Below are positions 4,588 through 22,876 of a stretch of DNA of 54,791 bases, in pieces. Source of the DNA: Gemmatimonadota bacterium (lineage in GTDB: Bacteria; Gemmatimonadota; Gemmatimonadetes; Palauibacterales; Palauibacteraceae); assembly GCA_039588495.1 (NCBI GenBank), contig JBDGZR010000005.1, forward strand, positions 1 to 54,791. Reading direction: 5' to 3'. The notes under the pieces are model-generated. The model had not been told where the DNA came from. It saw nothing but the letters and a program-made list of their open reading frames with translations, and did no database searches. Made by a program: the position numbers and the translations under genes. Within the stretch, counting starts at the first letter, position 1; each line of letters begins with the position of its first letter.

Positions 4588-4842
4588 CTAGGGTCCCGAC
4601 GGAGGATCGTCCTTGAACGGCCACGCGATCTTACCCGTTCCGCCGGAGGGGCTCGCCTTTTCCAACAACCGCTGCAGCTCCCCCTCGCTCATCTCGAACG
4701 GATCGTCCGTGTAGGTGGGCGGCGTCACGTTCCGTGGGTCGGACGGGTTGCCGGGCACCGGATCGAATACCCAGCGGTTCAGCGTCTCGTCCTTCACCTT
4801 CCAGACCGCACCGCTTCGGTCGGTGAACTTGCGATAGCTCAT
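4588..4842 (-). CDS. Small hypothetical protein (84 aa, MSYRKFTDRSGAVWKV...)
   Basis: ATGA overlap with the M1 peptidase stop; the longer ORF-track version overlaps the peptidase. Confidence 0.75.
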   Translation of the reverse strand: MSYRKFTDRSGAVWKVKDETLNRWVFDPVPGNPSDPRNVTPPTYTDDPFEMSEGELQRLLEKASPSGGTGKIAWPFKDDPPSGP

Positions 4843-6989
4843 CTCTCGCTCCTGGCTCGACCTTCGCCTCCGGCCTCGCTTTCGCCCTCGCCCCCGGCGC
4901 TCTCGGCCGCGTCCCATACGTTGTTGTCCCGGTCGACGTCGGGAAAGAGCGCCTCCGGGTCTATCTCCACCCGGACGACGGGGGAACCGTCGGGCACCGT
5001 CAGCACGGCCTCCGTCTCGCCGGCGAGCCAGGTATCGACCGAGACCTCGAGATCCAGCACCTCTCCGTTCTCCCGGGTGACCTGCACGCGCGCGGGCATG
5101 GGTACCAAGCCCAGGTCGCGGATGACGATATCCGTAACGTCGCCTGCGCCCCCGCCTTCGTGCCGGACGTCCGTCACCGCCTGGTCCAGCGTCCACGTCT
5201 CGTAGTACCAGGCGCGCCAGAACCACTCGAGGTCACGGCCGGTCACATCCTCGATCGTGTGGAAGAAGTCCCAGGGGGTGGGATGTCTGTAGGCCCACCG
5301 CCGGATGTACTCGCGGTAGGCGGGGAGGAAAGCCTCCTCTCCCAGCAGGCCCTGAAGGGCCGCGTGCACGGTGGAGGGCTTGCTGTAGGAGGCGGTCCCG
5401 GCGCGGCCCGGATAGTGGTGATCCGTCCACCGCATCATCTCACCCTCTTCGCCGCCGCGGGCGACGGCCAGGTAGCCCTCCCGGTCCGAGTCCTCTGAGT
5501 CCTCGCCGGGGAAGAACTCCTTGCGCGACTGGTTCTCGTTGAAGCTGGTCATGCCCTCGTCCATCCAGGCGTGCCGGCGCTCGTCCGTGCCGACGATCAT
5601 CGGCAGCCACATGTGACCGAGCTCGTGGGCCGTCACGTAGTAGAGCGAGCTGTCGCTCCGCGCGTTGTAGTCGCCCATCAGCGTCATCATCGGGAACTCC
5701 ATCCCCCCGCCGATAATGCCGCCTCCCTCGATCAGGCTCATGTGAGTCCAGGGGTAGGGGAGGGCGAGGTAGCGGGAGAAGAAGTCGATGGCATGCTGCC
5801 CGTAGCGGGCCGCGTTCGTCCAGCGGGGCGCGCTCGGACGGTAGAGGGCGTCTACCCGGGCGAAGTCGGCCTGCCCATCCACGTCCCGGTCTCCCACCGG
5901 TGTGCGCACGGCGTCCCAGAGGGAGGCGCGCGAGGCGCTGAACGAGACGTCGCGCGCCGTGTCGGCCCGGAAGTGCCAAGCGAGCGTCCCACCGCCGGAG
6001 CGCGTCGTGCGGCCGGCCGCGAGGTCGCCCTGACGCACGACGTGCACGACCGAGTCCGAGCTCTCCGCCTGCTGAAGCCGCGCCAGGACGGAGGGGTCAA
6101 GGACCTCCTCGGGATTCTGAAGCGCTCCGCTCGCCAGCACGAGCCAACCCGCCGGCACCTCGACGGTGAGGTCGTAGCTCCCGAAACCGGTGTAGAGCTC
6201 GGCCGCGCCTCGGAATTGATCGATTTGCCAGCCGACCACGTCGTCGTAGACGGCCATCTGCGGATACCAGTAGGCGATGAAAAAGAAGTCGTCGCCGTTC
6301 CATCCCATCCGGTTGCCGCCTCCCTGGCTCGGGACCTGGAAGGTCCAGTCGAGCTCCAACACCACGGAGTCACTTGCGGGCAGAGCCGTCGGAAGGATGA
6401 CCTGCAGGATCGTGCCGCGTACCACGTATCCGGGCGGCCGCTCCTCCTCTTCGTTGGGGGGCCTCCGGCTGGACTGCAGGGTCAGCTCCGCGCCGGACGC
6501 GGCGACGCGGGAGAGCACGACTCCTCCCGTCACCTGTTGGGGCCGGTTACGCATGGCGCCGACGGCGTGGACGTTCTGCATCAGGTGCAGGTAAACGGTC
6601 GAGAGCGAATCCGGCGAGCGGTTGTGGTAGGTGATGCGTCCCGTGCCGTAGAGCCGGCGTTCCGCGGGCCGGATCGTGGCCGTCAGCTCGTAATCCGCCC
6701 ACTGCTGCCAGTAGGCCGGGCCGGGTCGGCCCGAGGTCGTCCGAGTCCCGTTCGCGACCGCGTCCAGGAAGCCCCGCGACGGCACGACCGGGTAGGGGAT
6801 GGGACGCCGGACGGTGTCTGCCGGCATCTCGATGGCCGATTCGATCCCCGCCGCCGGGATCCCTGGCGAAGATGTAGAGGTGGATACGAGGCCGGCCGAA
6901 GCGGACCCGTTTGCTGCGGCGGCCGCGAGCACTGCTCCCAGCACAGGCGCGATGGACAGCGATCGAATCATCATGCGCATCACCGACAT
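4839..6989 (-). CDS. M1 family Zn-metallopeptidase (aminopeptidase N-like), exported
   Basis: GGMEFP, HELGH..WMDEG (HEXXH-18-E), YSKP; RBS AAGGGGAG before ATG 6989; signal peptide. Confidence 0.9.
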   Translation of the reverse strand: MSVMRMMIRSLSIAPVLGAVLAAAAANGSASAGLVSTSTSSPGIPAAGIESAIEMPADTVRRPIPYPVVPSRGFLDAVANGTRTTSGRPGPAYWQQWADYELTATIRPAERRLYGTGRITYHNRSPDSLSTVYLHLMQNVHAVGAMRNRPQQVTGGVVLSRVAASGAELTLQSSRRPPNEEEERPPGYVVRGTILQVILPTALPASDSVVLELDWTFQVPSQGGGNRMGWNGDDFFFIAYWYPQMAVYDDVVGWQIDQFRGAAELYTGFGSYDLTVEVPAGWLVLASGALQNPEEVLDPSVLARLQQAESSDSVVHVVRQGDLAAGRTTRSGGGTLAWHFRADTARDVSFSASRASLWDAVRTPVGDRDVDGQADFARVDALYRPSAPRWTNAARYGQHAIDFFSRYLALPYPWTHMSLIEGGGIIGGGMEFPMMTLMGDYNARSDSSLYYVTAHELGHMWLPMIVGTDERRHAWMDEGMTSFNENQSRKEFFPGEDSEDSDREGYLAVARGGEEGEMMRWTDHHYPGRAGTASYSKPSTVHAALQGLLGEEAFLPAYREYIRRWAYRHPTPWDFFHTIEDVTGRDLEWFWRAWYYETWTLDQAVTDVRHEGGGAGDVTDIVIRDLGLVPMPARVQVTRENGEVLDLEVSVDTWLAGETEAVLTVPDGSPVVRVEIDPEALFPDVDRDNNVWDAAESAGGEGESEAGGEGRARSER

Positions 6990-7055
6990 TCCACTCCCCT
7001 TGCACCCGTCTCCACGCGGGATAGCCTCAAGCATGCTGGTGAACCGGAGACCTCA

Positions 7056-7590: not shown

Positions 7591-9207
7591 TCAGGCCGAC
7601 TCGGCGACCTGATAGACGGTGTCGATCACCGTCCCGTCGACCCACTTGATCACCGCCACCGGCACGTCGGTCACGCGAGCCTTCTGGGGCTTGCCTCCGC
7701 ACAGGCTCTCCACCTCTCGCTGGATGTCCTCGATCGGCCGGATCGGAAGATCGGATCCGCGCAGTGCGTCCAACAAATCCTGGCGCCGGGGGTTGATGGC
7801 GATGCCCCGCTCGGTGGCCACGACGTCGATCAGCTCCCCGGGTCCCGTGACCGTCGTGACCTCGTCCTTGATCACCGGGATCCGGTCCCGGAAGGAGGGA
7901 ACGGCCAGGATCGAGCAGCCCGAGGCCAGGCAGTTCTGCCAGCCGCCGATCCCGTGCAGCAGGCGGCCGTCGGAGTGGGTGTTCACGTTGGCGTTGAAGT
8001 GCACGTCGACCTCCGTGGCGCCGAGCACCACGGCGTCGACCATGGAGGCGAAGTTGCCCTTCCCGTGGAAGTTGTACGAGGTGAACGGCGAGGTGGCGAC
8101 GTGCCGCGGATCCGAGCCGATGGAGCGCACGCCGTCCAGGTCGAAGGTCTGGCCGTCCAGGATGTAGTCGGTGAGCCCCTCCTCCAGTAGCTCGACCAGG
8201 TACCGGGTGGAGCCGCCGCGAACGAAACGGGCCTTGACGCCGGCCTCGCGCATGAGCTCGGCCAGGTACTCGACGAAGGCGAGCGCGATCCCCCCGGCGC
8301 CGGCCTGGAAGGAAAAGCCTTCGCGCATGATGCCGGTTTCCTTCAGCAGGCGCGCCACGTTGCGGGCGATCATCAGCCGCTCCGGGCTCCGGGTGATCCG
8401 CGTGGTGCCCGAGACGATCTTCTCCGGGTCGCCGATGCTCTCCACCTCGACGACGCAGTCGACGTTGTTCCCCTGGATCTGCCAGGGGATGCAGGGGAAG
8501 GGCACCAGGTTGTCGGTGACCACGATCACGTGCTCGGCGTAGATCGAGTCAGCCAGGGCGAAGCCCAGCGATCCGCAGGCCGACGGCCCGTGGGATCCGT
8601 CGCAGTTGCCGAACGGATCCGCGCTCGGCGCCGCGATGACGGCCACGTCGATCTTCACCTCCCCATCCTGGATGGCCTGCCACCGCCCCCCGTGCGACCG
8701 GAGCACGCCCAGGCCACGCATCTTCCCGCGGGAGCAGTAGTCGCCGAGGGGACCGTTCAGGCTGCCCTCGATGTGGTGGACGACTCCCGCCTCCATCAGA
8801 TCGATGACCGGCGCCTGACAGGGGAAGGAGGCGCTGGGAAACCACATCACGTCCTTCACGCCGAGGCGGGCCGCCGCCTCGAGGGCCATCATGCCCACCC
8901 GGTCTCCGTCGCGGAGATGGTGGTGCGAGGAGATGACCATCCCGTCCGAGAGCCCGCAGCGCCGAAAGGCCTCCTCCAGGCTATCGACGCGCTTGTCGCC
9001 GTCGGCCGGATAGTCCTGGCAGCTCCGGATCGGGGGCGCCTGTTTCCTGCCGTCGGGCTCGTGCTTGCCGACGCCGTTGAAGGGCACCGCCTCGCGGCCG
9101 TTCACCTCGCTCGGGATCAGACGGCCCAGCGCGTTGGGGACCATGCCTCCGGCGCTCCGCGAAGAGCCGCGCGGCCGTTTGTCGGTCGGCTTAATCGCTG
9201 TGGTCAT
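7591..9207 (-). CDS. citF: Citrate lyase alpha subunit / citrate CoA-transferase-like
   Basis: SSHHHLRDGD, RSHGGR, GSLGFA..D, VVTDNLVPFP, FSFQAGAGG, LGATEVDVHFNANV, GGWQ, TGPGELIDVVATERGIAINPRR. Confidence 0.9.
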   Translation of the reverse strand: MTTAIKPTDKRPRGSSRSAGGMVPNALGRLIPSEVNGREAVPFNGVGKHEPDGRKQAPPIRSCQDYPADGDKRVDSLEEAFRRCGLSDGMVISSHHHLRDGDRVGMMALEAAARLGVKDVMWFPSASFPCQAPVIDLMEAGVVHHIEGSLNGPLGDYCSRGKMRGLGVLRSHGGRWQAIQDGEVKIDVAVIAAPSADPFGNCDGSHGPSACGSLGFALADSIYAEHVIVVTDNLVPFPCIPWQIQGNNVDCVVEVESIGDPEKIVSGTTRITRSPERLMIARNVARLLKETGIMREGFSFQAGAGGIALAFVEYLAELMREAGVKARFVRGGSTRYLVELLEEGLTDYILDGQTFDLDGVRSIGSDPRHVATSPFTSYNFHGKGNFASMVDAVVLGATEVDVHFNANVNTHSDGRLLHGIGGWQNCLASGCSILAVPSFRDRIPVIKDEVTTVTGPGELIDVVATERGIAINPRRQDLLDALRGSDLPIRPIEDIQREVESLCGGKPQKARVTDVPVAVIKWVDGTVIDTVYQVAESA

Positions 9208-10535
9208 CGGTCGGCCTCGCTCCCGGTGTCCTTGTCTGTAGCCCCGGTGGCTGCGTCCTCGCTTCCGGTGTCGTCGGCCCTGTCGGCATCAGCCGCAGCC
9301 AGCCCGAGCGCCCGCGCCTGCTCGACCAGGGTCTGGGCCTGCCTGACCACGGGTGGGTCGATCATCTTCGAGCCCAGGCTCACCACGCCCCGGCCTTCGG
9401 CCCGGGCCTGCTCGTAGGCAGCCACGATCTTCAGCGCCCTCTCGATCTGAGTGGCGGCCGGCCGGAACGCCTCGTGGATCACCCGGATCTGGCGGGGGTG
9501 CAAGCAGCCCATGCCCTCGTAGCCCATCCCGCGGGATCGCTCGCCCCAGCGCTTCAGGCCCTCGAGGTCGTCGACCTGGCCGTAGACGGAGTCGATGGCC
9601 TGAACGCCCGCGGCCTTGGCGGCGTTCACCAGCCGCTGACGCGCCCAGGCGGATTCGGCCCCCTCCTCCGTCTTGGGGACCCCGAGGTCGGCCGAATAGT
9701 CCTCGAGACCGATGGTGATCGCCGCGATCCGCGGGCTCGCGCCCGCGATCTCGAACGCGTTCTCAATCCCGAGGGCGCTCTCCAGAATCGGCATCAGCCA
9801 GAGCGGGCGGTCCACGGCCGCGGCCTCCGGGCCTCCAGAATCGCCCGAGCCTCCCAAGATCCCGTCGATCGCGTCGTCCACCTCTCTCACGTGTTCCACC
9901 GTCTCGACCTTCGGGATGAGGATCATGTCCGGATACTCCGGAACCACGGCGGCCAGGTCCTCGAGGCCCAGCGGAAGCTGGTTGATGCGGACCATGCGCT
10001 CCGCGCTCCCGAAGTCCACGCAGCGGAGCGCGTTTCGGACCACGAGCCGGGCAGCGGGCTTGGCATCCGGGTGCACCGAGTCTTCGAGGTCCAGGATGAT
10101 CCCATCCGGCCCGTACAACCCGGCGCTCATGAAGAACTTGGGCTCGTTGCCTGGCAGGTAGAGCCGGGAGCGGCGCATCCTCGTCTGCGGAGCCTCGGGC
10201 ATGAGGGGAGCGGTCCGAGCGGGCCGGGCATCCCCCGACGGAGCGACACCGGCGGCCAGCGCCGCGGCCTCGAGCCGGGCCTCGATGACGAAGGGCAGGG
10301 CGCCCGCATCCTCCAGCGTCACCCGCGCGTCCGTCACTCCGAGGGCGCCGAGCACCTCCTCCACCTGGGTCCGGATCGCATCGCCGTAGTAGGCCTCGAC
10401 CCGGGAGCTCAGGTCGAGCTCGATCCCGCTGCCGCTCCGCGCCTCCAGCTGCACCCAGAGGTCGGAGCGGATCGTCTCTCCGCGGCGGCCCGCCGACCCG
10501 ATCCCGGCGGCCCTGGATCCCACCGTCACGCTCAT
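9204..10535 (-). CDS. citE: Fusion of a CitD-like (ACP/gamma) domain and CitE (citryl-CoA lyase/beta)
   Basis: N-terminal SRVEAYYGDAIR..DAGALPFVIEARLEAA (CitD-like); C-terminal RRSRLYLPGN, DLEDSV, VRIN, IPKVE, ILESALG, GLEDYSADLG, CLHPRQI, KMIDPPVV. Confidence 0.9.
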   Translation of the reverse strand: MSVTVGSRAAGIGSAGRRGETIRSDLWVQLEARSGSGIELDLSSRVEAYYGDAIRTQVEEVLGALGVTDARVTLEDAGALPFVIEARLEAAALAAGVAPSGDARPARTAPLMPEAPQTRMRRSRLYLPGNEPKFFMSAGLYGPDGIILDLEDSVHPDAKPAARLVVRNALRCVDFGSAERMVRINQLPLGLEDLAAVVPEYPDMILIPKVETVEHVREVDDAIDGILGGSGDSGGPEAAAVDRPLWLMPILESALGIENAFEIAGASPRIAAITIGLEDYSADLGVPKTEEGAESAWARQRLVNAAKAAGVQAIDSVYGQVDDLEGLKRWGERSRGMGYEGMGCLHPRQIRVIHEAFRPAATQIERALKIVAAYEQARAEGRGVVSLGSKMIDPPVVRQAQTLVEQARALGLAAADADRADDTGSEDAATGATDKDTGSEADR

Positions 10536-10582
10536 CTCGTTCTCCTGTCTGTCGCCGTCAGGCGCAGCGACGTAGCCGTAGG

Positions 10583-11785
10583 TCAGACGGCCGCGGGCAC
10601 GCCGAGCTTGGCGATGATGGCGTCCGTCATCTCGTGGGTGCTGGCCGCTCCGCGCGCGATCACGTCAGGGGCTCCGACGAGCCTCATCATGTCGTAGACC
10701 CGAACCCGGCCTTCCTCCACCACGCCCGCCACGGCCTGCCGTATGCGCTTTGCGGCTTCCATCTCGCCTACATGATCGAGCATCATCGCCGCGGTCAGCA
10801 TCATGGCGATCGGGTTCACGATCGGCGGGTCGAGCTCGGCGTATTTGGGCGCAGAGCCGTGGGTCGGCTCGAAGACCGCGACGTCGTCACCGATGTTGCC
10901 CGAGGCCGCGAATCCCAGGCCCCCGACGAGTCCCGCGAAGGCGTCGGAGACGATGTCGCCGAACAGGTTTCCGGCCACGATCACTCCGTAGGCCTCGGGG
11001 TTCTTGGTCAGCCACATCATCTGGGCGTCGATGTTGGTCGACCAGAGCTGGATCTCGGGGTAATCCTCGTGGATCGCCTTCGCTTCCTCCTCCATCATCC
11101 CCGAGGTCTCCCGGAGGACGTTGGGCTTCTCGCACACGGTGACCGACTCGTACCCGTGCTTCCGGGCGTACTCGAACCCGGCGCGAAGGATGCGCCGGCA
11201 GGCCTGACGCGTGAACACGCGCGTGCTGATCGCCAGGTCCTCCGGGGAAGTATCGGCGAACTTCTCGAACTTGGGGTGGGTCGCCAGCGCCGCGAGCACG
11301 GGCTCCGGAGGGTTCGTCCACTCCAGTCCGGCGTACATGCCCTCGGTGTTCTGGCGGAAGATCACCGCGTCGACCGCCGGCTCCTCGAAACCCCCGTCCG
11401 CGGTGCGCCGGATGAAGTTGAGCGGGTTGCCCTTAAAGGAGCGGCAGGGCCGGATGCAGATGTCCAGGTTGAAGAGCTGCCGCATCGTGACGATCGGGCT
11501 GTAGTACGTGTAGCCCTTCCCCATGAGCGACGGGTCGAGCTCGGCGGCGGCCGCCGGCTTGGGCTTCGAAGTGATCGCCCCGAACAGACCCAGCTTGTGT
11601 TCCTCCAGCAACCGGACGGTGCGCTCCGGAAGCGCGTTCCCCTCGCTCTTCCAGAACTCCCACCCGATGTCGCCGTGCACGTACTCCGCATCGAAGCCCA
11701 CGGCGTCCAGCACCCGCATAGCCTCTGAGAGCACGACCCCGCCGATTCCATCTCCCGGCATCGTGACCACGGTGTATTTCGCCAT
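10583..11785 (-). CDS. Isocitrate/isopropylmalate dehydrogenase family protein, homoisocitrate-dehydrogenase-like
   Basis: [58 protein letters not shown]; ATG 11785 after GGAGA. Confidence 0.85.
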
Positions 11786-11832
11786 CGTTTTCTCTCCGAT
11801 TCCTGTTCTACATGCGCCCAAAGGCGTCGGTA

Positions 11833-13797
11833 CTAGGCGATACCCAGCTTCTCTCTCACCTGGTTCTCCACCCCTCCCGCCACCACGAGCCCCTGGGGGA
11901 CGGTCCCGAGGGGAGGGAAGCGAAAGCTCCTCGACCGGTAGCCGATCGACCCGCTGGAGAAGTCGATCCGGAGCTGATCGCCCGGGACGATCGTCTTCTC
12001 CCCAGCCTCGATCGGGTCGGCGAGCTCCTCCTTCAGCCAGTCCACCAGCTCCGGGCACGTCACGCACGGGAAGCCGTTGTTGAACGCGTTCCGGAGGTAC
12101 GTCTGGGAGAAGCTCCCCGCCACGACCAGCGCGATGCCGGCGGCCTGAAGGGCCGTGACCGCCTGCTCCCGGCTCGAGCCGGTGCCGAAGTTCCAGCCGC
12201 CCAGGATCACGTCGCCCTTCCGGACCCGGCCAGCGAGCTCGGGGTCGTAGTTCTCGAACACGGCCCGCGCCATCCCCTCGGCCGTCATGTCGTCCCGGTA
12301 GGTGTAGTCCTTCCCGTAGATCAAGTCCGTGTTGAGGTTGTCCGGAAGAAGGAAGAGGAGCCGGCCGCTGATCCCCTCCGGAAAGCCCGGCAGGATCTCG
12401 ACCCGAACGTCCGCATCGCCGCCCCTCGCCGGATCGGCGCCGTCCAGGGCCTCGAAGCGCGGCGTGAGCCGGCGGCCGTTGATGCGCCGCGGAGCGGTGA
12501 TCCGGCCGGCCGCGGCCGACGCGGCGACGACGGCGGGGCTCGCCAGATAGCAGCGGGCGTCCCGCGAGCCCATCCGGCCCTTGAAGTTCCGGTTGGTGGC
12601 CGAGATGCCTACCTCTCCCGGCTCCAGGAGGCCGGTGCCGAGGCCGATGCACGGTCCGCAGCCGGGGGGCAGCGGTACGGCGCCGGCGTCGATCAGCGTC
12701 TGCCACGTTCCCCCCCGCTCCGCCTCCTCCTGGACCTCGCGGCTGGCGGCCGCCACATAAAGCTCTACCCCTTCGGCGACCCGCTTGCCCTCGAGGGCCG
12801 CCGCGGCAGCCGCGATGTCCTCGGCCCGCGAGTTGACGCACGAGACCAGGTAGGCCTTCTGGATCGGCATCCCCTCCGTCTCGATCTCGGCCACGCCCGT
12901 GACCACCTGCACGGTGTCCGGGCCGGCGAGCTGAGGCGTCACTTCGGAGAGATCCAGGGTGATGCAGGCGGCGTAGATGGCGTCGTCATCCGGGGCCGGC
13001 GGCTCGAGCTCCCAGCGGGCGAGGTCGTCCTCGCTCACCCGCTCGACGCCGCGGGCGCCCAGGATCTCCCGCCGAGCGGCCAGGAAGGCCAGCGACTCCG
13101 CGTCCACGGGAAACCAGCCCACTAGGGCTCCCCACTCGGTCGTCATGTTGGCGATTGCCAGCCGCTCGGCCACGGAGAGCGTCTCGACTCCCGGGCCGGC
13201 GAACTCCACGGCGGCGTTCAGCACCTCGCCCTCGTTGTAGAGTCCGCAGAGCGCCAGGATGACGTCCTTGCCCGCGGCGCCCTCGGGAAGCCTGCCCTCC
13301 AGCACCACCTGCACGGTGCGCGGGATCTGCCACCAGAAGGTGCCGGTCGCCCAGATCGCCGCCGCATCGGTGCGGACCACGGGCGTCCCGACCGCACCCA
13401 CGCCCCCGTACATGTTGGCGTGGGAGTCGGAGGCCACGACGAACGCGCCCGGCACGGCGTACTGGCCCTCGATCATCACCTGGTGGCCGATCCCCGTGCC
13501 CGCCGGGTAGAAGTCGATCCCCTGATTCCGGGCGAACGCCTCGATCGCGCCGTACTTGGCGAGGTTCTCGTCGGAGGTGTTCTGAATGTCGTGGTCCAGC
13601 GCGAACACGGGCTGGGAGGGATCGAAGACCCGGGTCGCTCCGATCGCCTTGAACTTCTTCATGACCGGCGCCGAGTTGTCGTGCGTGAGCACGTGCCTCG
13701 GCCGGATCGTCACGAAGTCGCCGGCCGTCAGCGGACGGTCCCCCGGCCCCTCGGCCATATGATTCCGGGCGACCTTCTCTACGATCGTCTGTCCCAT
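11833..13797 (-). CDS. lysF: Single-chain homoaconitate hydratase of the fungal Lys4/LysF type (aconitase family, fused swivel domain)
   Basis: THDNS, LDHDIQN, GIGHQ, ASDSH, GTPVVRTDAAAIWATG..WWQIP, ANMTTEWGAL; Fe-S ligands SCVN and CGPCIG; C-terminal NTDLIY, NFGTGSSREQA. Confidence 0.85.
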   Translation of the reverse strand: MGQTIVEKVARNHMAEGPGDRPLTAGDFVTIRPRHVLTHDNSAPVMKKFKAIGATRVFDPSQPVFALDHDIQNTSDENLAKYGAIEAFARNQGIDFYPAGTGIGHQVMIEGQYAVPGAFVVASDSHANMYGGVGAVGTPVVRTDAAAIWATGTFWWQIPRTVQVVLEGRLPEGAAGKDVILALCGLYNEGEVLNAAVEFAGPGVETLSVAERLAIANMTTEWGALVGWFPVDAESLAFLAARREILGARGVERVSEDDLARWELEPPAPDDDAIYAACITLDLSEVTPQLAGPDTVQVVTGVAEIETEGMPIQKAYLVSCVNSRAEDIAAAAAALEGKRVAEGVELYVAAASREVQEEAERGGTWQTLIDAGAVPLPPGCGPCIGLGTGLLEPGEVGISATNRNFKGRMGSRDARCYLASPAVVAASAAAGRITAPRRINGRRLTPRFEALDGADPARGGDADVRVEILPGFPEGISGRLLFLLPDNLNTDLIYGKDYTYRDDMTAEGMARAVFENYDPELAGRVRKGDVILGGWNFGTGSSREQAVTALQAAGIALVVAGSFSQTYLRNAFNNGFPCVTCPELVDWLKEELADPIEAGEKTIVPGDQLRIDFSSGSIGYRSRSFRFPPLGTVPQGLVVAGGVENQVREKLGIA

Positions 13798-13807
13798 CTC
13801 CGACTCC

Positions 13808-15196
13808 TCAGGCGTGGGCGAGGGCCGCCGCACGCGTCAGCTTCATCAGCTCCGTGATGGACTCCACGTTCTCCAGGTTCCAAACCGCTTCCTTCAGCTC
13901 CTGCTGTTCCTCGGCCGGCATGATCGGGGCGGCCAGCGCCTCGAACTTCTCTTCGATCTCCTCATCCGTCAGCGGGTTACGGGGGTCGCCCTTCGGGTAG
14001 TCGATCTGCTTCGAGAACTCGCGGCCGTCGGTGGTGCGGATGGTCACGATCACGCGCTGCAGCTCGGGGAAGAGGGCCTCGATCTCCGGGTCGGCCACCA
14101 CCTTCACCTTGTGGAGCTGGGCCCGGATCGTCGGGTCCATGATCTTCTCGTTCGTGAACTGGAGGGGCGTGACCTGACGCTCCGCGACGGCCGCTGCGAT
14201 CACGTAGGGCAGGCTGTGGTCGGCGGTCTCCTTCGTGCGCGGATCGTACTTGGTCGGGTCTGCCAGGATGTCCGCCGCCCGCGCCAGCGAACGGATATGC
14301 ACCTGCTCGATATCGTCCGGAGCGAGGTCGTTCTCCTTGATGAGGTCCAGGGTGCAGGAGATCGGAGCGTGGGTGAGCGCCTCGGTCGGAAACGCCTTCA
14401 TCCCGCACTGGGTGATGCGGAAGCCGTCGCCGAGTCCCTCCTCCAGGATCTCGAGCTCCCACTCGGGACCCATGCACTGGGCGAGCCCCTCCTTGCCGTC
14501 GATCACGTGCTCTGGGCCGCTGTAGCCCCTCTCGGCCAGGAGGGCGGCCAGGACGCCGCTCTGCGTGGCCATCGGATCCACGGTGTTCTTCATCATCGTG
14601 AGCTTCCCGGCCGTCACCGCCCCGAGCGTGGCCATGCGGGAGCCCGAGATCCCGATCGCGTGCTGCATCTGCTCGGGATCCAGGTCCAGCATCCGGGCCG
14701 CGACGATCGGCGACACGAAGGCGGTGAAGGTCGCGTGGTGCCAGCCGCGCTCGCGGATGCCCGGGAAGGCGGCTTCGCAGAGCCGCATCTCGAACTCGTG
14801 TCCGAGGACGATGCCGAGGATCAGGTCCCGGCCCGCCTTGCCGGCCCGCTCCCCGCACGCCATGGCGGCGGGAATGATGTCCGACGGGTGCGATGGGTCC
14901 TGCTTCCAATAGATGTCGTTGTAGTCCATGACGCGGACCATCAGGGCGTTGAGCAGCGAGGCGGAGATCGGATCCAGCCGCTGCCCCGTTCCGATGACGG
15001 TGGCTGGCCCCGTGCCGGCATGCTCCTCGAGCACCTCGAGGGCGATCTTCACATCGTGCTGCTGGAAGCCGCCGAGCGCGCAGCCGAGGGAGTCGAGCAG
15101 ATAGCGCTTCGCCTCTCGAACGGCCGCGTCGCTCAGGTCCTCGTAGGTCAGGTCGCAGGCCCAGCGCGAGATGCGGGCCGTGATCGTGTCGCTCAC
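13808..15196 (-). CDS. prpD: MmgE/PrpD family dehydratase (2-methylcitrate dehydratase-like)
   Basis: LLDSLGCALGG, DYND, SHPSD, RGWHH, ETADHSLPY, PKGDPRNPL. Confidence 0.85.
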   Translation of the reverse strand: MSDTITARISRWACDLTYEDLSDAAVREAKRYLLDSLGCALGGFQQHDVKIALEVLEEHAGTGPATVIGTGQRLDPISASLLNALMVRVMDYNDIYWKQDPSHPSDIIPAAMACGERAGKAGRDLILGIVLGHEFEMRLCEAAFPGIRERGWHHATFTAFVSPIVAARMLDLDPEQMQHAIGISGSRMATLGAVTAGKLTMMKNTVDPMATQSGVLAALLAERGYSGPEHVIDGKEGLAQCMGPEWELEILEEGLGDGFRITQCGMKAFPTEALTHAPISCTLDLIKENDLAPDDIEQVHIRSLARAADILADPTKYDPRTKETADHSLPYVIAAAVAERQVTPLQFTNEKIMDPTIRAQLHKVKVVADPEIEALFPELQRVIVTIRTTDGREFSKQIDYPKGDPRNPLTDEEIEEKFEALAAPIMPAEEQQELKEAVWNLENVESITELMKLTRAAALAHA

Positions 15197-15215
15197 CGCT
15201 CAGTCCTTTCAGTCA

Positions 15216-15779
15216 CTACAGGTTCTTGAAGGGCTCGAAGCTCATAAAGTCGGCGTGATGGACGATGAAGGCCTCGGTGCTTCGCTTGACGAGGTCACCC
15301 TCGGCCGCGTGCGTGGCGATAATGTGGCAGACCTCATCGGGTACGCCGCACGCCATCGCCAGGTGGACTCCCGTGAACGGATGCCGAAGCGCTTTGCCGC
15401 GCTCGCTCTGCACCGCCTCGCCGCCGACCCGTTCGTACTCGAGGAGCTTGCCGACATCGGCGAGGATGGCCCCGGCGATGACGACGTCCATGTCGATCGG
15501 GAGCGCGCGTCCCAGGAACTCCTGCATCGCCTCGGCGGAGCGCCGAGCTATGTGCACGACGCAGCGTTTGTGCTCCATGAAGGTCGCCGGGCAGTCGGGA
15601 ACCAGGAGCGTGAAGGGGATCTCCTCCAGGTCGTCGGGCTCGAGCGGGCTGGCCTCGAACGCCCGGATCCACGTCAGCAGAGTGCTGTCGCGAAGAGCGG
15701 GGTCCTGAATCCATTCCAGCTCCGGCCACAGCCGCTCGACGGACTCGCGAACGGGCGAGGCTTCAACGGCATCAGGCAT
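15216..15779 (-). CDS. HD/HDIG-fold protein with altered motif (ILADVGK)
   Basis: EHKR, GAILADVGKLLEY, LRHPFTG, HIIATH, VHHADF; GGGAGA RBS before ATG 15779. Confidence 0.8.
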   Translation of the reverse strand: MPDAVEASPVRESVERLWPELEWIQDPALRDSTLLTWIRAFEASPLEPDDLEEIPFTLLVPDCPATFMEHKRCVVHIARRSAEAMQEFLGRALPIDMDVVIAGAILADVGKLLEYERVGGEAVQSERGKALRHPFTGVHLAMACGVPDEVCHIIATHAAEGDLVKRSTEAFIVHHADFMSFEPFKNL

Positions 15780-16056
15780 GGGGGTCTCCCGCGGTATGGG
15801 TCGGTCTTGGACTGGCGTCACCTGTCGGCACGTCGGCGGTAGGGGCGGGGTCGCCGAGCCGGAAACGGTCGAGATTCACCTGCTGCGCGCTCTGGAAAGC
15901 GCGGCCCATGTGAACGCTAATCAGGTCGTGCGGGGTCGCAAGTCGGGAAAGAGCCCACCGGTCCTGTCGGGAAAAGCCGTCAGCCTAACCGGCTTGCTCA
16001 CCGGCGGTTGGGCCACGCTGGTGCAGGGAGTAGGCCCCACCGCTCTCGGGGGGTCG

Positions 16057-16091
16057 AAGACGAAACGGGACGGCCCCGAAGGACCGCCCCG
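16057..16091 (-). terminator. Intrinsic terminator-like hairpin (UUCG loop) in the leader of the tricarboxylate operon
   Basis: Minus strand CGGGGCGGUCC-UUCG-GGGCCGUCCCG-UUUCGUCUU, an 11-bp stem with two G-U pairs. Confidence 0.7.
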
Positions 16092-16275
16092 ATCGGGTCC
16101 CGATGCAGCATTGCACGATGCAGGCTCTTCTCGAAGTCCGCTACGACAACGGCAAGGGTTCCCTAATTGCGATGTCGCCGGCGTTTCCGACCTTACCGCC
16201 TGCTGTTCAGCCGGGGGGCGCGGACCTATTAATGGGGCTCGCGAAATCGAAGACCGCAGAGGAAGAGAGGCACGG

Positions 16276-17415
16276 GTGAGACGCTGGCAACTTCAGCCGA
16301 GGGCGGCGGCTCTGGGGGGCGCGCTGATCCTGTGCATGGCCCTTGGCGCGGCGGCGCAGGAAACGGCCCCGGGCTGCGCCGATTGCGCCGAGGTCCTGAT
16401 CGCCGAGGTGGGCCTGCGCGAGGCGCCGGCGCCGGTGCGCGAGCGACCCGGCTGGACCGCTCCCCGCAAGATCGTGGTGCGCGGAGACGACGAGCTCGTC
16501 CGCTCGCTGCAGGGCGTCGCTCCGGGCGTCGAGCTGGTTGCAGCGACGAGCCACGAGGCCGCCGTCCGCGCGGCCCCCGGGGCCGATGCCGTGATCGGCT
16601 ACTGCAGCGCCGAGATCCTGGAGGCGGGCGAGCGGCTGGAGTGGATCCAGATCCTCTCGGCCGGTGCGGAACGGTGCGTGGGCGTCCCGGCGGTCCGCGA
16701 CCGAGGCCTCCTCATCACCAACGCCCAGCGGATCTACGGCCCCGAGATCGCGGAGCACGTGATCGCCATGCTCTACGCGTTCTCGCGCGGCCTCTACCGG
16801 TACATCCCGGAGCAACTGGAGGGCCGCTGGAACCGGAACGCCGTGCCGCGGGATCGGATGTGGGAGCTGGACGGAAGGACGATGTTTGTCGTCGGATTGG
16901 GCGGGATCGGGACCGAGGTGGCCCGTCGCGCGCACGCGCTCGGCATGCGAGTGGTCGCGACGCGGCGTAGCAGCCGCAGCGGCCCCGAATTCGTAGACTA
17001 TGTCGGCCTGGCCGACGAGTTCGGCGAGCTGGCGGCGGAGGCGGATGTGATCGTGAACGCCACTCCCCTCACGCCCGAGACGACCGGGATGTTCGATGCC
17101 GCCTTCTTCTCGCGCATGAAGCCCACCGCGTACTTCATCAACATCGGACGGGGACGCAGCGTCGTGACGGATGATCTCGTGGCTGCGCTCGAGGCGGGGG
17201 AGCTGGCCGGTGCCGGGCTCGACGTCACCGATCCGGAACCGCTGCCCCAGGGCCACCCGCTCTGGGAGCTTCCGAACGTGATCATCACGCCGCACATAGC
17301 GGGCTCGTCCGTCGAGGCGGTCGAGCGTCAGCGGACCCTGGTCAGGGAGAACATCCGCCGTTACGTGGCCGGCGAGCGGATGCTGTCGGTCGTGGACGTC
17401 GGCCGGGGGTATTGA
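16276..17415 (+). CDS. D-2-hydroxyacid dehydrogenase family protein with N-terminal signal-like extension
   Basis: VVGLGGIG Rossmann motif, INIGRG, LDVTDPEPLP, TPHIAG; GTG 16276 after AGAGG. Confidence 0.85.
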   Translation: MRRWQLQPRAAALGGALILCMALGAAAQETAPGCADCAEVLIAEVGLREAPAPVRERPGWTAPRKIVVRGDDELVRSLQGVAPGVELVAATSHEAAVRAAPGADAVIGYCSAEILEAGERLEWIQILSAGAERCVGVPAVRDRGLLITNAQRIYGPEIAEHVIAMLYAFSRGLYRYIPEQLEGRWNRNAVPRDRMWELDGRTMFVVGLGGIGTEVARRAHALGMRVVATRRSSRSGPEFVDYVGLADEFGELAAEADVIVNATPLTPETTGMFDAAFFSRMKPTAYFINIGRGRSVVTDDLVAALEAGELAGAGLDVTDPEPLPQGHPLWELPNVIITPHIAGSSVEAVERQRTLVRENIRRYVAGERMLSVVDVGRGY

Positions 17416-18496: not shown

Positions 18497-20044
18497 CTAC
18501 AGATCCGCCAGGTGGTCGGACCACCATCCAGCCGCCCGATCCGGGGTCCAGGGATCGCCCACATCGGAATCCGCCAGCATGGCCGCCAGCTCGTCGACGG
18601 TCTGAGGCCTCCGGGCCGGATCCTTCTCCAGGCACGCGAGGACGATCCGGTCCAGCGCCGAGGGAACCGGCTGGTCGGTGCGGCTCGAGGGGGCGGGCGG
18701 CGTCTCGCGCACGTGCATCACCATGGTCTGCAGAGCCGATTCGCCCTCGAACACGTAGGAGCCCGTGAGCATCCAGTACGCCACGCAGCCGAGTGAGTAG
18801 ATGTCGGCGCGGCCGTCGATCTCCTCGCCGGCCACCTGCTCCGGCGCGATGTACGCCGGCGTGCCTCCCACCGAGTGGTCGACGGTCAGCGCGAGGTCTC
18901 GGCTCTCGCCGTGGTGGTGGAGCTTCACGAGACCGAAATCGAGCACCTTTACGAAATCCACCTGCCGCGCGTACCGGCAGACATAGATGTTCGCCGGCTT
19001 GACATCGCGGTGGATCAGGCCGTTCTCGTGCGCCTCGCCCAGCGACTCGCAGGTCTGTTCCAGCAGATAGGCTGCGCGGGCAGGCGGCAGGGGGCCGAAT
19101 CTCTTCACCAGCTCTTCCAGATTGAGGCCGTGCAGCAACTCCATCACATAGTAGAAGGTCCCGCCCTGCTCGATCCCGAAATCGTAGAGCTGGATGGTGT
19201 GGGGTGAGGACATGGCGGCCGTCACCTGCGCCTCCCGCTCGAAGCGGGCGAGCATCATACCCTGGTGCTCGGGGTCCCGGGCGACGACATCGGGCCGGAT
19301 GAGCTTGACGGCGGCAGGTCGGGCCAGCAGCCGGTGCTGCGCGAGCCACACCTCCCCCATCCCGCCCCGGCCAAGCCGCGACTCGAGCACGTAGCTGCCC
19401 AGCCGGCGAGCCTCCGCCAGATCGACGTTCATCCCGTGCACGATTCGGGATCCCAGGTAGGCGAGCACGACGGCAAACGCAGGGCTGACGGACGACACCA
19501 CGTAGCGGATCGCGGGGATCTCGAATCCGGCAAAACCCGCGAGCAGGGCCAGGGCAATGGGTCGCGTCGAGGCAGCGCCGATCGCCGTGATCAGGGTTAG
19601 GCGTGGCGGACTCGGGACGATCATCGGGAAGAAGATGATCAGGGGAGTGACCCACGTGACGTACGGGACGTCGCCGATCTCCATGTACGTGAGCCACGGC
19701 GTGAACACGGCGAGGAAGAAGCAGATCAGGACCTCGTAGATCAGCGCCAGGTGGAGCACGACGAGATGCGTCACCCGCTCGTCCCTGGCGATCAGGATGA
19801 GCCCGCCGGCCAGCGATACGCCAATGACACTTCCCACGATCACGAGCGGATCCAGAGTGCCGACGAAGAGGCGGGCGTACAGCAGATCGAAGGCCGCGCC
19901 GACGGCCACGAAGGCGAACATGATCCAGGCCAGGATCCTGACTCGGCCGCGGGCCTTCTCGAGCAGATCCGGGGTGAGGCCCAACCAGGCGCGCCGGGCG
20001 GCGCCGGGGTCCGTGATGCGCCGGAAGACGACCGCTTCCTTCAA
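18497..20044 (-). CDS. Hanks-type Ser/Thr kinase with multi-TM N-terminus
   Basis: LGRGGMGEVW, AVKL, HRDVKPAN, KVLDFG, GTPAYIAPE; TTGA overlap with the SDR stop. Confidence 0.9.
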   Translation of the reverse strand: MKEAVVFRRITDPGAARRAWLGLTPDLLEKARGRVRILAWIMFAFVAVGAAFDLLYARLFVGTLDPLVIVGSVIGVSLAGGLILIARDERVTHLVVLHLALIYEVLICFFLAVFTPWLTYMEIGDVPYVTWVTPLIIFFPMIVPSPPRLTLITAIGAASTRPIALALLAGFAGFEIPAIRYVVSSVSPAFAVVLAYLGSRIVHGMNVDLAEARRLGSYVLESRLGRGGMGEVWLAQHRLLARPAAVKLIRPDVVARDPEHQGMMLARFEREAQVTAAMSSPHTIQLYDFGIEQGGTFYYVMELLHGLNLEELVKRFGPLPPARAAYLLEQTCESLGEAHENGLIHRDVKPANIYVCRYARQVDFVKVLDFGLVKLHHHGESRDLALTVDHSVGGTPAYIAPEQVAGEEIDGRADIYSLGCVAYWMLTGSYVFEGESALQTMVMHVRETPPAPSSRTDQPVPSALDRIVLACLEKDPARRPQTVDELAAMLADSDVGDPWTPDRAAGWWSDHLADL

Positions 20045-22535: not shown

Positions 22536-22876
22536 TGCGACCTCCGGTGACGCCTCGCAAGAAACCGGTGTCGGGCCAAAATCCCCGAAATACCTCCCGA
22601 TTAGTGATCTCTGCGTACTCACGTCAAAGATCGGCCTGTCACTGCCACGTAACTGATTGCAATCACGCGGTATAGACGGGTCAGGCCGTAGCGGCGACAC
22701 GTCGCCTGCGTCTCGCGAGCGAGCTCGCGTTCGGTCGACGAGAGCACGATGCCGTCACCGAGAAGCGCAAGTTCAGGACCGGTGGATGACGCGGCATAAG
22801 GGCGACATAGGGTGTAGTCCGGCCTCGTCGCCGCCGGAGGTTGGCTGGCGCTCCGGACACCGGTAGCATAGGCGGT

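Follow-up and report, generated by a model that had tools for sequence, protein, structure and literature searches.

What might be achieved by an operon that encodes the subunits of a carrier-dependent citrate lyase together with a homoaconitase-type hydro-lyase, a beta-decarboxylating dehydrogenase, an MmgE/PrpD-family protein and an HD-superfamily protein, and that contains no synthase gene? This question is raised by contig JBDGZR010000005.1 (C5), a 54.8 kb stretch of 54,791 nucleotides that we refer to as the window and that belongs to a metagenome-assembled genome of the Gemmatimonadales (G000; 3.15 Mb in 210 contigs, 74.55% complete; G and L numbers denote genomes and loci throughout). 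Judging by the families of their products, the six genes probably make up a self-contained module that would convert a 2-oxo-dicarboxylic acid, by way of tricarboxylates, into a C2 unit and the homologue with one carbon less, or the reverse. The reading that we prefer, with a probability of roughly 0.4, is that this module runs the upper aminoadipate route in reverse, in the C7 series and in the direction of cleavage, such that 2-oxoadipate would be converted to 2-oxoglutarate and acetate.

The genes are packed as the original prediction had described them, namely co-oriented and either overlapping or less than 50 bp apart: read from the HD gene towards the CitF gene, successive genes are separated by 19, 10, 47 and 47 bp, with a 4 bp overlap between those for the CitD-CitE fusion (CitDE) and CitF. 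With the ATG start of the hydro-lyase the PrpD-like gene lies 10 bp away, and with GTG 13833 the two overlap by 26 bp. The dehydrogenase start (ATG 11785) has GGAGAG 7 nt upstream. For the HD protein, an alternative upstream GTG at 15821 would give 201 aa, and its homologues begin near Met15.

To what extent this arrangement is conserved became clear when the PrpD-like protein served as marker in a scan that covered one genome per species and returned at least 600 stretches, at least 549 of them encoding a marker relative; we analysed the 80 best loci (54 from Acidobacteriota, 21 from Gemmatimonadota, 2 from Rhodothermota, 1 from Latescibacterota and 2 unplaced). All six genes were collinear in 63 of these 80 loci, spanning four phyla, which bears out the claim that they form one conserved unit, and in a further 13 the order was intact up to the end of the contig. 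CitF was not nearby in four loci of a single Terriglobia subclade (L040, L050, L055 and L058), where the genes from HD to CitDE were kept and no CitF gene occurred within 5 kb downstream; the next large open reading frame (ORF) downstream in L050 encodes a MATE efflux transporter, and in L055 the hydro-lyase, dehydrogenase and CitDE genes are inverted and lie elsewhere in the locus. Median identities to the window proteins, taken from 57–80 rows with at least 80% coverage, were 75% for HD, 75% for PrpD-like (range 73–98% over the 80 loci), 65% for the hydro-lyase, 73% for the dehydrogenase, 61% for CitDE and 78% for CitF. There was no conserved seventh gene, transporter or regulator in the 80 loci, the commonest flanking family being present in 13 of them; the recurrent flanks (adenosine deaminase, S-adenosylmethionine hydroxide adenosyltransferase, kinases and others) are unrelated housekeeping genes. 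The six genes, HD included, are thus one unit, and this unit comes with neither a transporter nor a regulator. Near the cluster in 6 of the 80 loci, all from Gemmatimonadota and hence lineage-restricted, we also noted a gene for an ADP-forming acyl-CoA synthetase-like protein (ATP-grasp_5, CoA_binding_2, Succ_CoA_lig; 787 aa; e.g. L045 844-3204), which could bear on the fate of acetate.

The distribution of the cluster is patchy. In Gemmatimonadota the marker occurred in 20 of 401 sampled genomes (11 of 147 genera), and the Acidobacteriota sample had it in 24 of 251. Fifteen of these 24 acidobacterial markers had at least 68% identity; the other nine had 52–60% identity, and eight of the nine stood alone, with the partner genes absent. 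In a FastTree tree of the marker, the Gemmatimonadota clade of the window holds two Acidobacteriota rows (support 99) and a second Gemmatimonadota clade holds the Rhodothermota and Latescibacterota rows (support 95), with short distances between phyla throughout; mis-binned contigs could explain a few of these rows. Given the patchy distribution and the high identity across phyla, the cluster is probably an accessory cassette that moves horizontally. A plasmid collection contained only distant MmgE/PrpD proteins, at most 34% identical.

We then compared each product with curated protein families (Table 1). The hydro-lyase scored 704.7 bits against the homoaconitase equivalog TIGR00139 (cut-off 529.9). 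It carries PF00330 and PF00694 in one chain, and 71 sequences share its cluster-ligand region 'GCGPCIG', the further Cys of 'VSCVNSR' and the motif 'GSSREQA'; by these features it classifies as a fungal-type fused homoaconitase. For the dehydrogenase, the Pfam Iso_dh cut-off was exceeded and all 16 NCBIfam matches fell under theirs, the best models being the homoisocitrate dehydrogenases AksF2 (264.8 bits, cut-off 540) and AksF (251 bits). Its substrate loop 'YSPIVTMRQ' and its coenzyme dyad in 'SAPKY' are both invariant in 68 sequences. The S-P-I-V of the loop matches neither the S-x-N-V of isocitrate dehydrogenases (IDH) nor the A-I-R-Y of the Thermus homoisocitrate dehydrogenase (HICDH), such that an invariant Ile takes the place of the Asn with which isocitrate dehydrogenases bind the gamma-carboxylate, and a family-specific insertion lies beside the loop. 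Where the dehydrogenase has 'SAPKY', Thermus HICDH and the NAD-dependent IDH 6lky have 'SAPDI'. The Lys-Tyr pair is presumably the NADP-specificity dyad of E. coli IDH (K344/Y345), and the dyad thus appears to be of the NADP type; a Ser that we take to be equivalent to E. coli IDH Ser113 is kept, and the nearest solved relative is an NAD-IDH.

Table 1. Genes of the six-gene operon and the adjoining upstream stretch (positions in the window; putative functions as assigned from family matches).
Feature	Position	Strand	Supporting match or remark
CitF-type acyl transferase (citrate lyase alpha subunit), 538 aa	7591..9207	-	PF04223 438 bits
CitD-CitE fusion, 443 aa	9204..10535	-	PF06857 residues 24-93; PF03328 residues 122-347
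Iso_dh-family beta-decarboxylating dehydrogenase, 400 aa	10583..11785	-	PF00180 251 bits
Fused large- and small-subunit homoaconitase-type hydro-lyase	11833..13797 (ATG, 654 aa) or ..13833 (GTG, 666 aa)	-	TIGR00139
MmgE/PrpD-family protein, 462 aa	13808..15196	-	PF03972 251 bits, PF19305 165 bits
HD-superfamily protein, 187 aa (ATG 15779)	15216..15779	-	TIGR00277 HDIG; first gene of the operon
Non-coding stretch 5' of the operon	15780..16500	.	Between the operon and the divergent D-2-hydroxyacid dehydrogenase gene

The protein that the original prediction had called PrpD is a member of the MmgE/PrpD superfamily, and the label holds to that extent only. Its scores lie far under the PrpD equivalog cut-offs (97.6 versus 950 for NF042438, 94.3 versus 575 for NF006943 and 69.4 versus 458 for TIGR02330), and the solved structures nearest to it are IDS-epimerase (E 2e-40) and IRG1/cis-aconitate decarboxylase (4e-35), followed by 2-methylcitrate dehydratases (8e-20). 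CitF scored just under the equivalog TIGR01584 (487.5 bits, cut-off 501.45) and clearly above the cut-off of Pfam PF04223 (438 versus 27); the CitE part scored 250.5 bits against TIGR01588 (cut-off 443.4) and matched Pfam HpcH_HpaI (PF03328) at 171 bits, with CLYBL and malyl-CoA lyase as the nearest solved lyases; and the CitD part reached 56.4 bits against TIGR01608 (cut-off 63.5) and 64.6 versus 25.1 for PF06857.

Do these lyase genes belong functionally with the other four? The strongest evidence that they do comes from more divergent loci. In the Gemmatimonadota genome G026 (L081; marker identity 54%), a minus-strand array encodes, in this order, an Lrp/AsnC regulator, a CcsA-like protein, a CcsB-like protein, Ccl, HD, an Iso_dh-like dehydrogenase, a PrpD-like protein and homoaconitase. 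The CcsA-like protein consists of ATP-grasp_2 and a weak citrate-binding domain and the CcsB-like protein of a CoA-binding/ligase region, both under the succinyl-CoA synthetase cut-offs, and Ccl exceeded the citryl-CoA lyase model NF004869 (276.6 bits, cut-off 212). A metagenome scan with the G026 marker provided 80 further loci, of which 21 had the complete window-type order and many others were truncated but consistent with it. Besides L081, the Ccs/Ccl set was joined to the core in L084 and L093; L089 and L090 had Ccl plus a divergently placed CitF gene and no CitDE; L096 and L148 had the order Ccl-HD-dehydrogenase-PrpD-like; L143 and L159 were arranged as dehydrogenase-HD-homoaconitase-PrpD-like-CitDE-CitF; and in L122 the CitDE-CitF pair was divergent from the remaining genes. 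An acidobacterial variant (G615), with the order Ccl-HD-PrpD-like-SDR-MFS transporter-aldehyde dehydrogenase-CcsAB facing a TonB receptor gene, looks catabolic. Homoaconitase adjoins the HD/Iso_dh-like/PrpD-like core in some of the divergent loci only (e.g. L081). Because three thioester-making or thioester-cleaving sets (CitDEF, Ccs/Ccl and CitF plus Ccl) attach to the same core, a citrate-type cleavage or condensation step appears to be part of the pathway.

The flanks of the variant loci had no common theme. In L160 (7350-11341) the PrpD-like gene directly follows SdhA-SdhB, and in L093 (3-20794) the Ccs/Ccl-HD-dehydrogenase-PrpD-like genes lie between lipoamide dehydrogenase/lipoate ligase genes on one side and E1 alpha/beta genes plus the nuo operon on the other, a central-metabolism setting unlike that of the window.

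Against this background, it is extremely unlikely that two unrelated modules, namely a standard citrate lyase and a lysine- or leucine-type isomerase-dehydrogenase set, have come together by chance. Each half alone does resemble a known system; but the order recurs in most loci of four phyla with differing flanks, the lyase half is swapped for non-homologous equivalents with the other half kept, two of the genes overlap, and the accessory genes of a standard citrate lyase, as described next, were not found.

Those accessory genes matter for the carrier domain. Within its 'AG..G..RSD' motif, Ser24, which we take to correspond to CitD Ser14, the attachment site of the 2'-(5''-phosphoribosyl)-3'-dephospho-CoA group, is invariant in 62 sequences. 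The original prediction had remarked that lysW, citC, citG and citX are missing from the window, and none of them was found in the 74.55%-complete assembly either. Neither of the two observations that would have spoken against that prediction arose: the cluster is conserved elsewhere, and five searched genomes, namely G000, the 'chromosome' records of a Latescibacterota (4.3 Mb), a Gemmatimonadota (4.7 Mb) and an Acidobacteriota (4.2 Mb) member and an Acidobacteriota assembly (4.9 Mb), gave no match to CitC (PF08218), CitG (PF01874) or CitX (PF03802). CitC as TIGR00124 was found in 0 of 1 genome searched, and the controls in E. coli were positive. Either the carrier domain is modified by another enzyme or it works in a different way. 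The complex is otherwise like citrate (pro-3S)-lyase CitDEF (EC 4.1.3.6) of Klebsiella, E. coli and lactic acid bacteria, and like the (S)-citramalate lyase of Clostridium tetanomorphum, in comprising CitF, CitE and a CitD-type domain with its presumed carrier Ser, and its CitDE and CitF genes appear translationally coupled as in those operons. It differs from them in that CitD is fused to CitE, in that CitE, CitD and CitF all fall under the equivalog cut-offs, in the lack of transporter, oxaloacetate decarboxylase and two-component genes as well as of CitC/G/X, and in that the lyase is always joined to four further genes.

Could the HD protein stand in for CitG or CitX, or for another carrier-maturation enzyme? 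We rejected this candidate role: orthologues with 61–77% identity persist in Ccl-type loci that have no CitD domain, and since HD is kept where CitD is absent, it does not appear to serve the carrier domain. The protein belongs to the module, and it is an unusual member of its superfamily. It scored 32.8 bits against TIGR00277 HDIG, a weak match above the cut-off of 27.6, and had no Pfam match even at E<=1. The usual 'HD' dyad is Ala-Asp ('ILADVGK'), invariant in 79 aligned sequences and also present in 18 database relatives, so that the protein departs from the metal-binding motif H...HD...D of the superfamily; many His residues are conserved across the alignment. An AlphaFold2 (AF2) model was of mediocre confidence (mean predicted local distance difference test score, pLDDT, 69.6) and gave only weak, generic HD-fold matches with Foldseek (YhaM, E 2.9e-3; 1xx7; YfbR), so an HD-like fold is suggested by the model with low confidence. 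An Atlas search returned its own family only. Relatives of the protein amount to at least 8000 database clusters; a search for longer ones yielded six singletons, of which two carry a PrpD N-domain, a number too small to speak of a fusion.

The four types of enzyme, when combined, suggest a generic chain in which a 2-oxo acid with n carbons plus C2 would be in equilibrium with a 2-substituted malate, a cis-alkene, a 3-substituted malate and finally a 2-oxo acid with n+1 carbons plus CO2; the catalytic steps, the substrate, the stereochemistry and the direction are all inferred. In our preferred reading, the NADP-type Iso_dh enzyme would first carboxylate 2-oxoadipate reductively to homoisocitrate, which homoaconitase would dehydrate to cis-homoaconitate. 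The PrpD-like enzyme, which we propose to be a syn-dehydratase/hydratase of the 2-substituted malate (a tertiary alcohol), would then add water to give homocitrate; CitF would exchange acetate for homocitrate on the CitD carrier domain; and the CitE domain would split the resulting thioester into 2-oxoglutarate and acetyl-carrier. The net reaction would be 2-oxoadipate + CO2 + NAD(P)H -> 2-oxoglutarate + acetate, and carbon derived from lysine or 2-aminoadipate would thereby be drained into the tricarboxylic acid (TCA) cycle.

Why should a PrpD-like protein be needed next to a homoaconitase? Citrate lyase, ATP-citrate lyase and Ccl, which has the citrate-synthase fold, share pro-3S (Si) stereochemistry. 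If the priority rules are carried over by analogy, the tertiary alcohol here would be the (S)-enantiomer; the (R)-homocitrate that LeuA-type synthases produce is its mirror image. An anti-eliminating enzyme of the aconitase type would be unable to link this (S)-alcohol with the cis-alkene, and a syn-acting PrpD-family enzyme would be able to do so. The presence of a syn-acting PrpD-like protein beside a homoaconitase responsible for half of the reaction could thus be explained by the (S)-configured alcohol that an Si-type lyase would give, as for PrpD and aconitase in the methylcitrate cycle. This hypothesis is in line with passages of Fazius et al. 2012 (PMC3556520), according to which fungal homoaconitases convert only homoaconitate and homoisocitrate into each other, (2S,3S)-methylcitrate requires a syn-eliminating dehydratase and aconitases carry out trans-eliminations only; the idea of the original prediction that a PrpD-type enzyme supplies the half-reaction beyond the reach of a fungal-type homoaconitase fits these statements. 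The same passages contain the logic of the methylcitrate cycle, where the product of an Si-type condensation undergoes syn-elimination and then anti-hydration of the aconitase type, and the module resembles that cycle in placing a PrpD-family protein beside a hydro-lyase of the aconitase family (AcnB/AcnA). It differs in that its protein is no PrpD equivalog, in that the cluster has no PrpC-type gene and in that the chain would end in a beta-decarboxylating dehydrogenase and not in methylisocitrate lyase.

Which carbon series the module serves is less clear, and we rank C7 over C6 with modest confidence. The C7 series is favoured because the hydro-lyase exceeds the TIGR00139 cut-off, the homoisocitrate dehydrogenase models are the best for the dehydrogenase, the S-P-I-V loop departs from that of isocitrate dehydrogenases and the neighbours in G026 are lysine-catabolic. 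Indeed, the G026 module is divergent from a gene for L-piperidine-6-carboxylate dehydrogenase (763.5 bits versus 730; piperideine-6-carboxylate dehydrogenase below), followed by a class-III aminotransferase gene, and these two enzymes would plausibly take lysine to 2-aminoadipate and on to 2-oxoadipate. In Gemmatimonadota, piperideine-6-carboxylate dehydrogenase was found in 14 of 20 cluster-bearing genomes versus 75 of 381 others, and by genus in 9 of 11 versus 32 of 136 (Fisher p=1.8e-4, with kin not independent); it is also present in G001, G002 and G004.

In the C6 series, the module would instead link 2-oxoglutarate, by way of the dehydrogenase, the hydro-lyase and the PrpD-like enzyme, to citrate, which would be cleaved to oxaloacetate and acetate or acetyl-CoA (a reductive branch, for instance for the use of glutamate) or would be formed from these. 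We consider this unlikely, yet it has definite points in its favour. CitDEF and Ccs/Ccl, neither of which is known to act on anything but citrate, substitute for each other here, and CitF comes close to the citF equivalog cut-off. Some variant loci lie amid genes of central metabolism (L093 and L160, as above, and L101 with an acetyl-CoA synthetase gene nearby); and the dehydrogenase has an NAD-IDH as its nearest solved relative and keeps the presumed Ser113 equivalent. The logic of carboxylating, isomerising and releasing C2 is that of CcsAB/Ccl in Hydrogenobacter, or of ATP-citrate lyase, after a reductive isocitrate dehydrogenase, as in the reductive TCA branch and in reductive glutamine metabolism, and some variant loci join the core to a CcsA/CcsB/Ccl-like set as in Hydrogenobacter. 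The window version would, unlike these, be ATP-independent and carrier-bound, with the isomerase split into two unrelated enzymes and HD always included, and it would be an accessory module in heterotrophs with an ordinary TCA cycle. Against C6 speaks, first, redundancy: 5 of 5 genomes own a citrate synthase and a second, separate aconitase-family gene, and the Latescibacterota chromosome (G001, L023) has a monomeric IDH in addition to its sole Iso_dh-family member, which is that of the cluster. Moreover, prochiral citrate requires no PrpD-type enzyme, the hydro-lyase passes the homoaconitase and not the aconitase model, and the Asn that binds the gamma-carboxylate of isocitrate is the invariant Ile. 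The same redundancy led us to reject a housekeeping TCA segment as the role of the cluster.

The genomic background also speaks to the missing synthase. As the original prediction had it, the window lacks a citrate or homocitrate synthase gene; in G000, genes for citrate synthase and for HMGL-like proteins (LeuA/homocitrate synthase family) occur on contigs other than C5. In G001 there is a cluster and no HMGL-like gene, in agreement with the claim that no LeuA-family synthase is needed. Because 5 of 5 genomes have their own citrate synthase and aconitase and G001 has no HMGL-like gene, the cassette appears to be neither TCA housekeeping nor dependent on a LeuA-type synthase. G001 has only two aconitase-family genes and apparently lacks LeuA, LeuCD and lysA; it looks multiply auxotrophic yet keeps the six-gene cassette.

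In which direction might the chain run? By an estimate from known equilibrium constants, the overall reaction is near equilibrium, and both directions are therefore chemically possible. A lyase that works without net hydrolysis of a thioester favours cleavage at millimolar concentrations. We favour cleavage because of these lyase thermodynamics, the catabolic context in G026 and G615, the negative searches for an onward route to lysine, the presence of lysA in 13 of 20 bearers and the NADP-type dyad. The original prediction had put the biosynthetic direction first, with CitE and CitF replacing the synthase on a route to 2-oxoadipate, and had mentioned a reductive or cleavage pathway as an alternative; our evidence reverses this order, although, being contextual, it is not decisive.

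Synthase-free biosynthetic elongation, in which CitE would join 2-oxoglutarate, or a different 2-oxo acid, to an acetyl thioester, CitF would free the acid and the other enzymes would lead to 2-oxoadipate for lysine or another product, is in our view decidedly unlikely. The same gene set and the same stereochemical logic hold in reverse, the equilibrium estimate permits it, and G001 manages without a LeuA-family synthase. Furthermore, genomes without lysA are enriched among cluster-bearing Gemmatimonadota (7 of 20 versus 42 of 381, p=0.006, with kin not independent), and in the genus of the window lysA was found neither in three genomes that are at least 90% complete nor in the window's own assembly; DapA gave only sub-cut-off matches there (about 145 versus 206 bits) in 9 of 11 genomes. 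This suggests that the genus, in which the diaminopimelate route is apparently lacking, is auxotrophic for lysine or uses an unknown route. However, no onward route from 2-aminoadipate came to light: LysW was detected in none of the 11 genomes from the genus and scored above the cut-off in none of five further genomes, and alpha-aminoadipate reductase (TIGR03443) exceeded its cut-off in 0 of the 11. lysA is kept in 13 of 20 cluster-bearing Gemmatimonadota, and also in G003 and G026; lysA-negative bearers may simply be lysine auxotrophs. The lyase would favour cleavage, as stated above; the oxidative step of chain elongation is NAD-dependent, and an NADP-type dyad would be unusual there; and the patchy distribution, suggestive of horizontal gene transfer, comes with no linked biosynthetic genes. 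The cluster as a replacement of the diaminopimelate pathway, which we also considered, is not supported, given lysA in most bearers and no LysW or aminoadipate reductase.

With cleavage of 2-oxoadipate as the preferred reading, the module can be set against the upper alpha-aminoadipate pathway of fungi and Thermus and the AksA-AksDE-AksF chain of methanogens. It shares with them the fungal-type fused homoaconitase and an AksF-like dehydrogenase. It differs in that a lyase complex replaces the LeuA-family synthase, a PrpD-like protein takes over the first half-reaction from aconitase, the dyad is of the NADP type, and genes of the lower pathway (LysW, LysX-type or reductase) were not found. We predict that its homocitrate is of the other enantiomeric form and that it probably runs the other way. 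The cluster is thus unlike the canonical cit, prp and alpha-aminoadipate operons, as had been claimed from the start.

Several observations weigh against cleavage of 2-oxoadipate. CitDEF and Ccs/Ccl are known for citrate only, and CitF is almost canonical, which favours C6. The NADP-type dyad would suit an oxidative, NADPH-producing enzyme equally well, the solved proteins nearest to the PrpD-like one are an epimerase and a decarboxylase, with dehydratases further away, and the HD protein is assigned no step in a scheme that needs none from it. The presumed carrier Ser is retained, yet no known modifying or acetylating enzyme was found in the five genomes, and in several Ccl-type loci no homoaconitase adjoins the core. 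Lastly, the link to lysine degradation is uneven: piperideine-6-carboxylate dehydrogenase adjoins the module in 1 of about 170 loci examined (G026), is missing from the window's genus (0 of 3; best score 397 bits) and likewise from G003, and shows no significant association with the cluster in Acidobacteriota, whether all PrpD-like matches are counted (10 of 24 versus 77 of 227, p=0.5) or type-A-like genomes without the chosen centre (8 of 14 versus 79 of 236, p=0.09). HglS (PF07063), one of the known 2-oxoadipate sinks, occurred in 0 of 48 chosen genomes (14 with and 34 without the cluster, all with piperideine-6-carboxylate dehydrogenase), a result that is uninformative on complementary distribution.

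A further reading is that the substrate is a different organic acid, for example a plant or microbial tricarboxylate or an aminopolycarboxylate. The PrpD-like protein would then be an epimerase, an isomerase or a decarboxylase, and the HD protein would serve as a catalytic metalloenzyme (hydratase or oxygenase) at the entry step. IDS-epimerase and IRG1 are the solved proteins nearest to the PrpD-like one, and the HD protein, which is always present, has a changed metal motif and numerous invariant His residues and finds no place in the simple scheme. The minimal core of the most divergent loci is HD plus PrpD-like plus a thioester-forming or lyase set; in G615 this core is accompanied by genes for an SDR, an aldehyde dehydrogenase, an MFS transporter and a TonB receptor; and the dehydrogenase has its own insertion beside the substrate loop. 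We nevertheless judge this, too, to be improbable: the four enzyme families of the window type form elsewhere a complete 2-oxo-acid elongation or cleavage chain, which is more than a different chemistry would need, and no candidate compound is pointed to by the neighbours in 80 loci.

Taking every element of the preferred cleavage of 2-oxoadipate together gives a 'mirror-image' homocitrate pathway of soil bacteria with NADPH-dependent carboxylation of 2-oxoadipate, homoaconitase, an (S)-homocitrate hydratase as a new member of the PrpD family, a homocitrate-cleaving lyase whose carrier is matured independently of CitC/G/X, and an HD protein with a non-canonical metal site, all in a cross-phylum six-gene cassette. 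That the whole of this holds is doubtful. If it did, 2-oxoadipate and lysine carbon would have a catabolic route in soils that had not been recognised, and a PrpD-family enzyme and a citrate-lyase-type complex would have their first role in the C7 series. Moreover, (S)-homocitrate would occur naturally, whereas all known natural homocitrate is of the opposite form, and a carrier protein of the citrate-lyase type would function with no CitC, CitG or CitX. Even with another substrate, three features would remain defined, namely an interchangeable cleavage system, an ever-present Ala-Asp HD protein and missing accessory genes, and the cassette is common, with at least 549 marker-bearing stretches at one genome per species. 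The component families are all known; what appears to be new is the way in which they are combined, together with the exchange of one lyase set for another, the missing accessory genes and the participation of an HD protein, and full-text literature searches, which left most subscription journals and supplements outside, found no description of the gene combination.

Elsewhere in G000, a saccharopine-dehydrogenase-family protein (PF16653; G000:C9:18000-18740, L171 8602-9777) was detected; the family was over the cut-off in 6 of 11 genomes of the genus. It had no NCBIfam match, and its nearest solved chain, ahead of fungal saccharopine reductases, was 3abi (PH1688, E 1.5e-36). 3abi/PH1688 is presumably an L-lysine 6-dehydrogenase, and the G000 protein may be one as well.

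Turning to the surroundings of the operon, its promoter is presumed to lie in the non-coding stretch upstream. This stretch contained no sigma-70-like site (0 found versus 0.4 expected); terminator-like sites were at chance level (5 found versus 2.9 expected), and no Rfam family matched upstream of the operon, either at the gathering score or at E<=1, which gives no sign of a riboswitch or other RNA. Other genes of the window encode a flotillin-like FloA (312-1298, +), an M1-family peptidase (4839-7034, -), a Ser/Thr protein kinase (18497-20044, -) and a TonB C-terminal domain protein (21150-22700, -). None of these recurs with the cluster in other lineages; the peptidase gene is kept downstream of CitF in the closest relatives L001, L002 and L011 only. 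The ORF of the divergent D-2-hydroxyacid dehydrogenase extends from 15778 to 17415 (+), but its 2-Hacid_dh domains begin only at residue 251, and its true start is probably near 16500. Within the upstream stretch, the minus strand carries a strong GC-rich hairpin followed by a T-run at 16091-16066.

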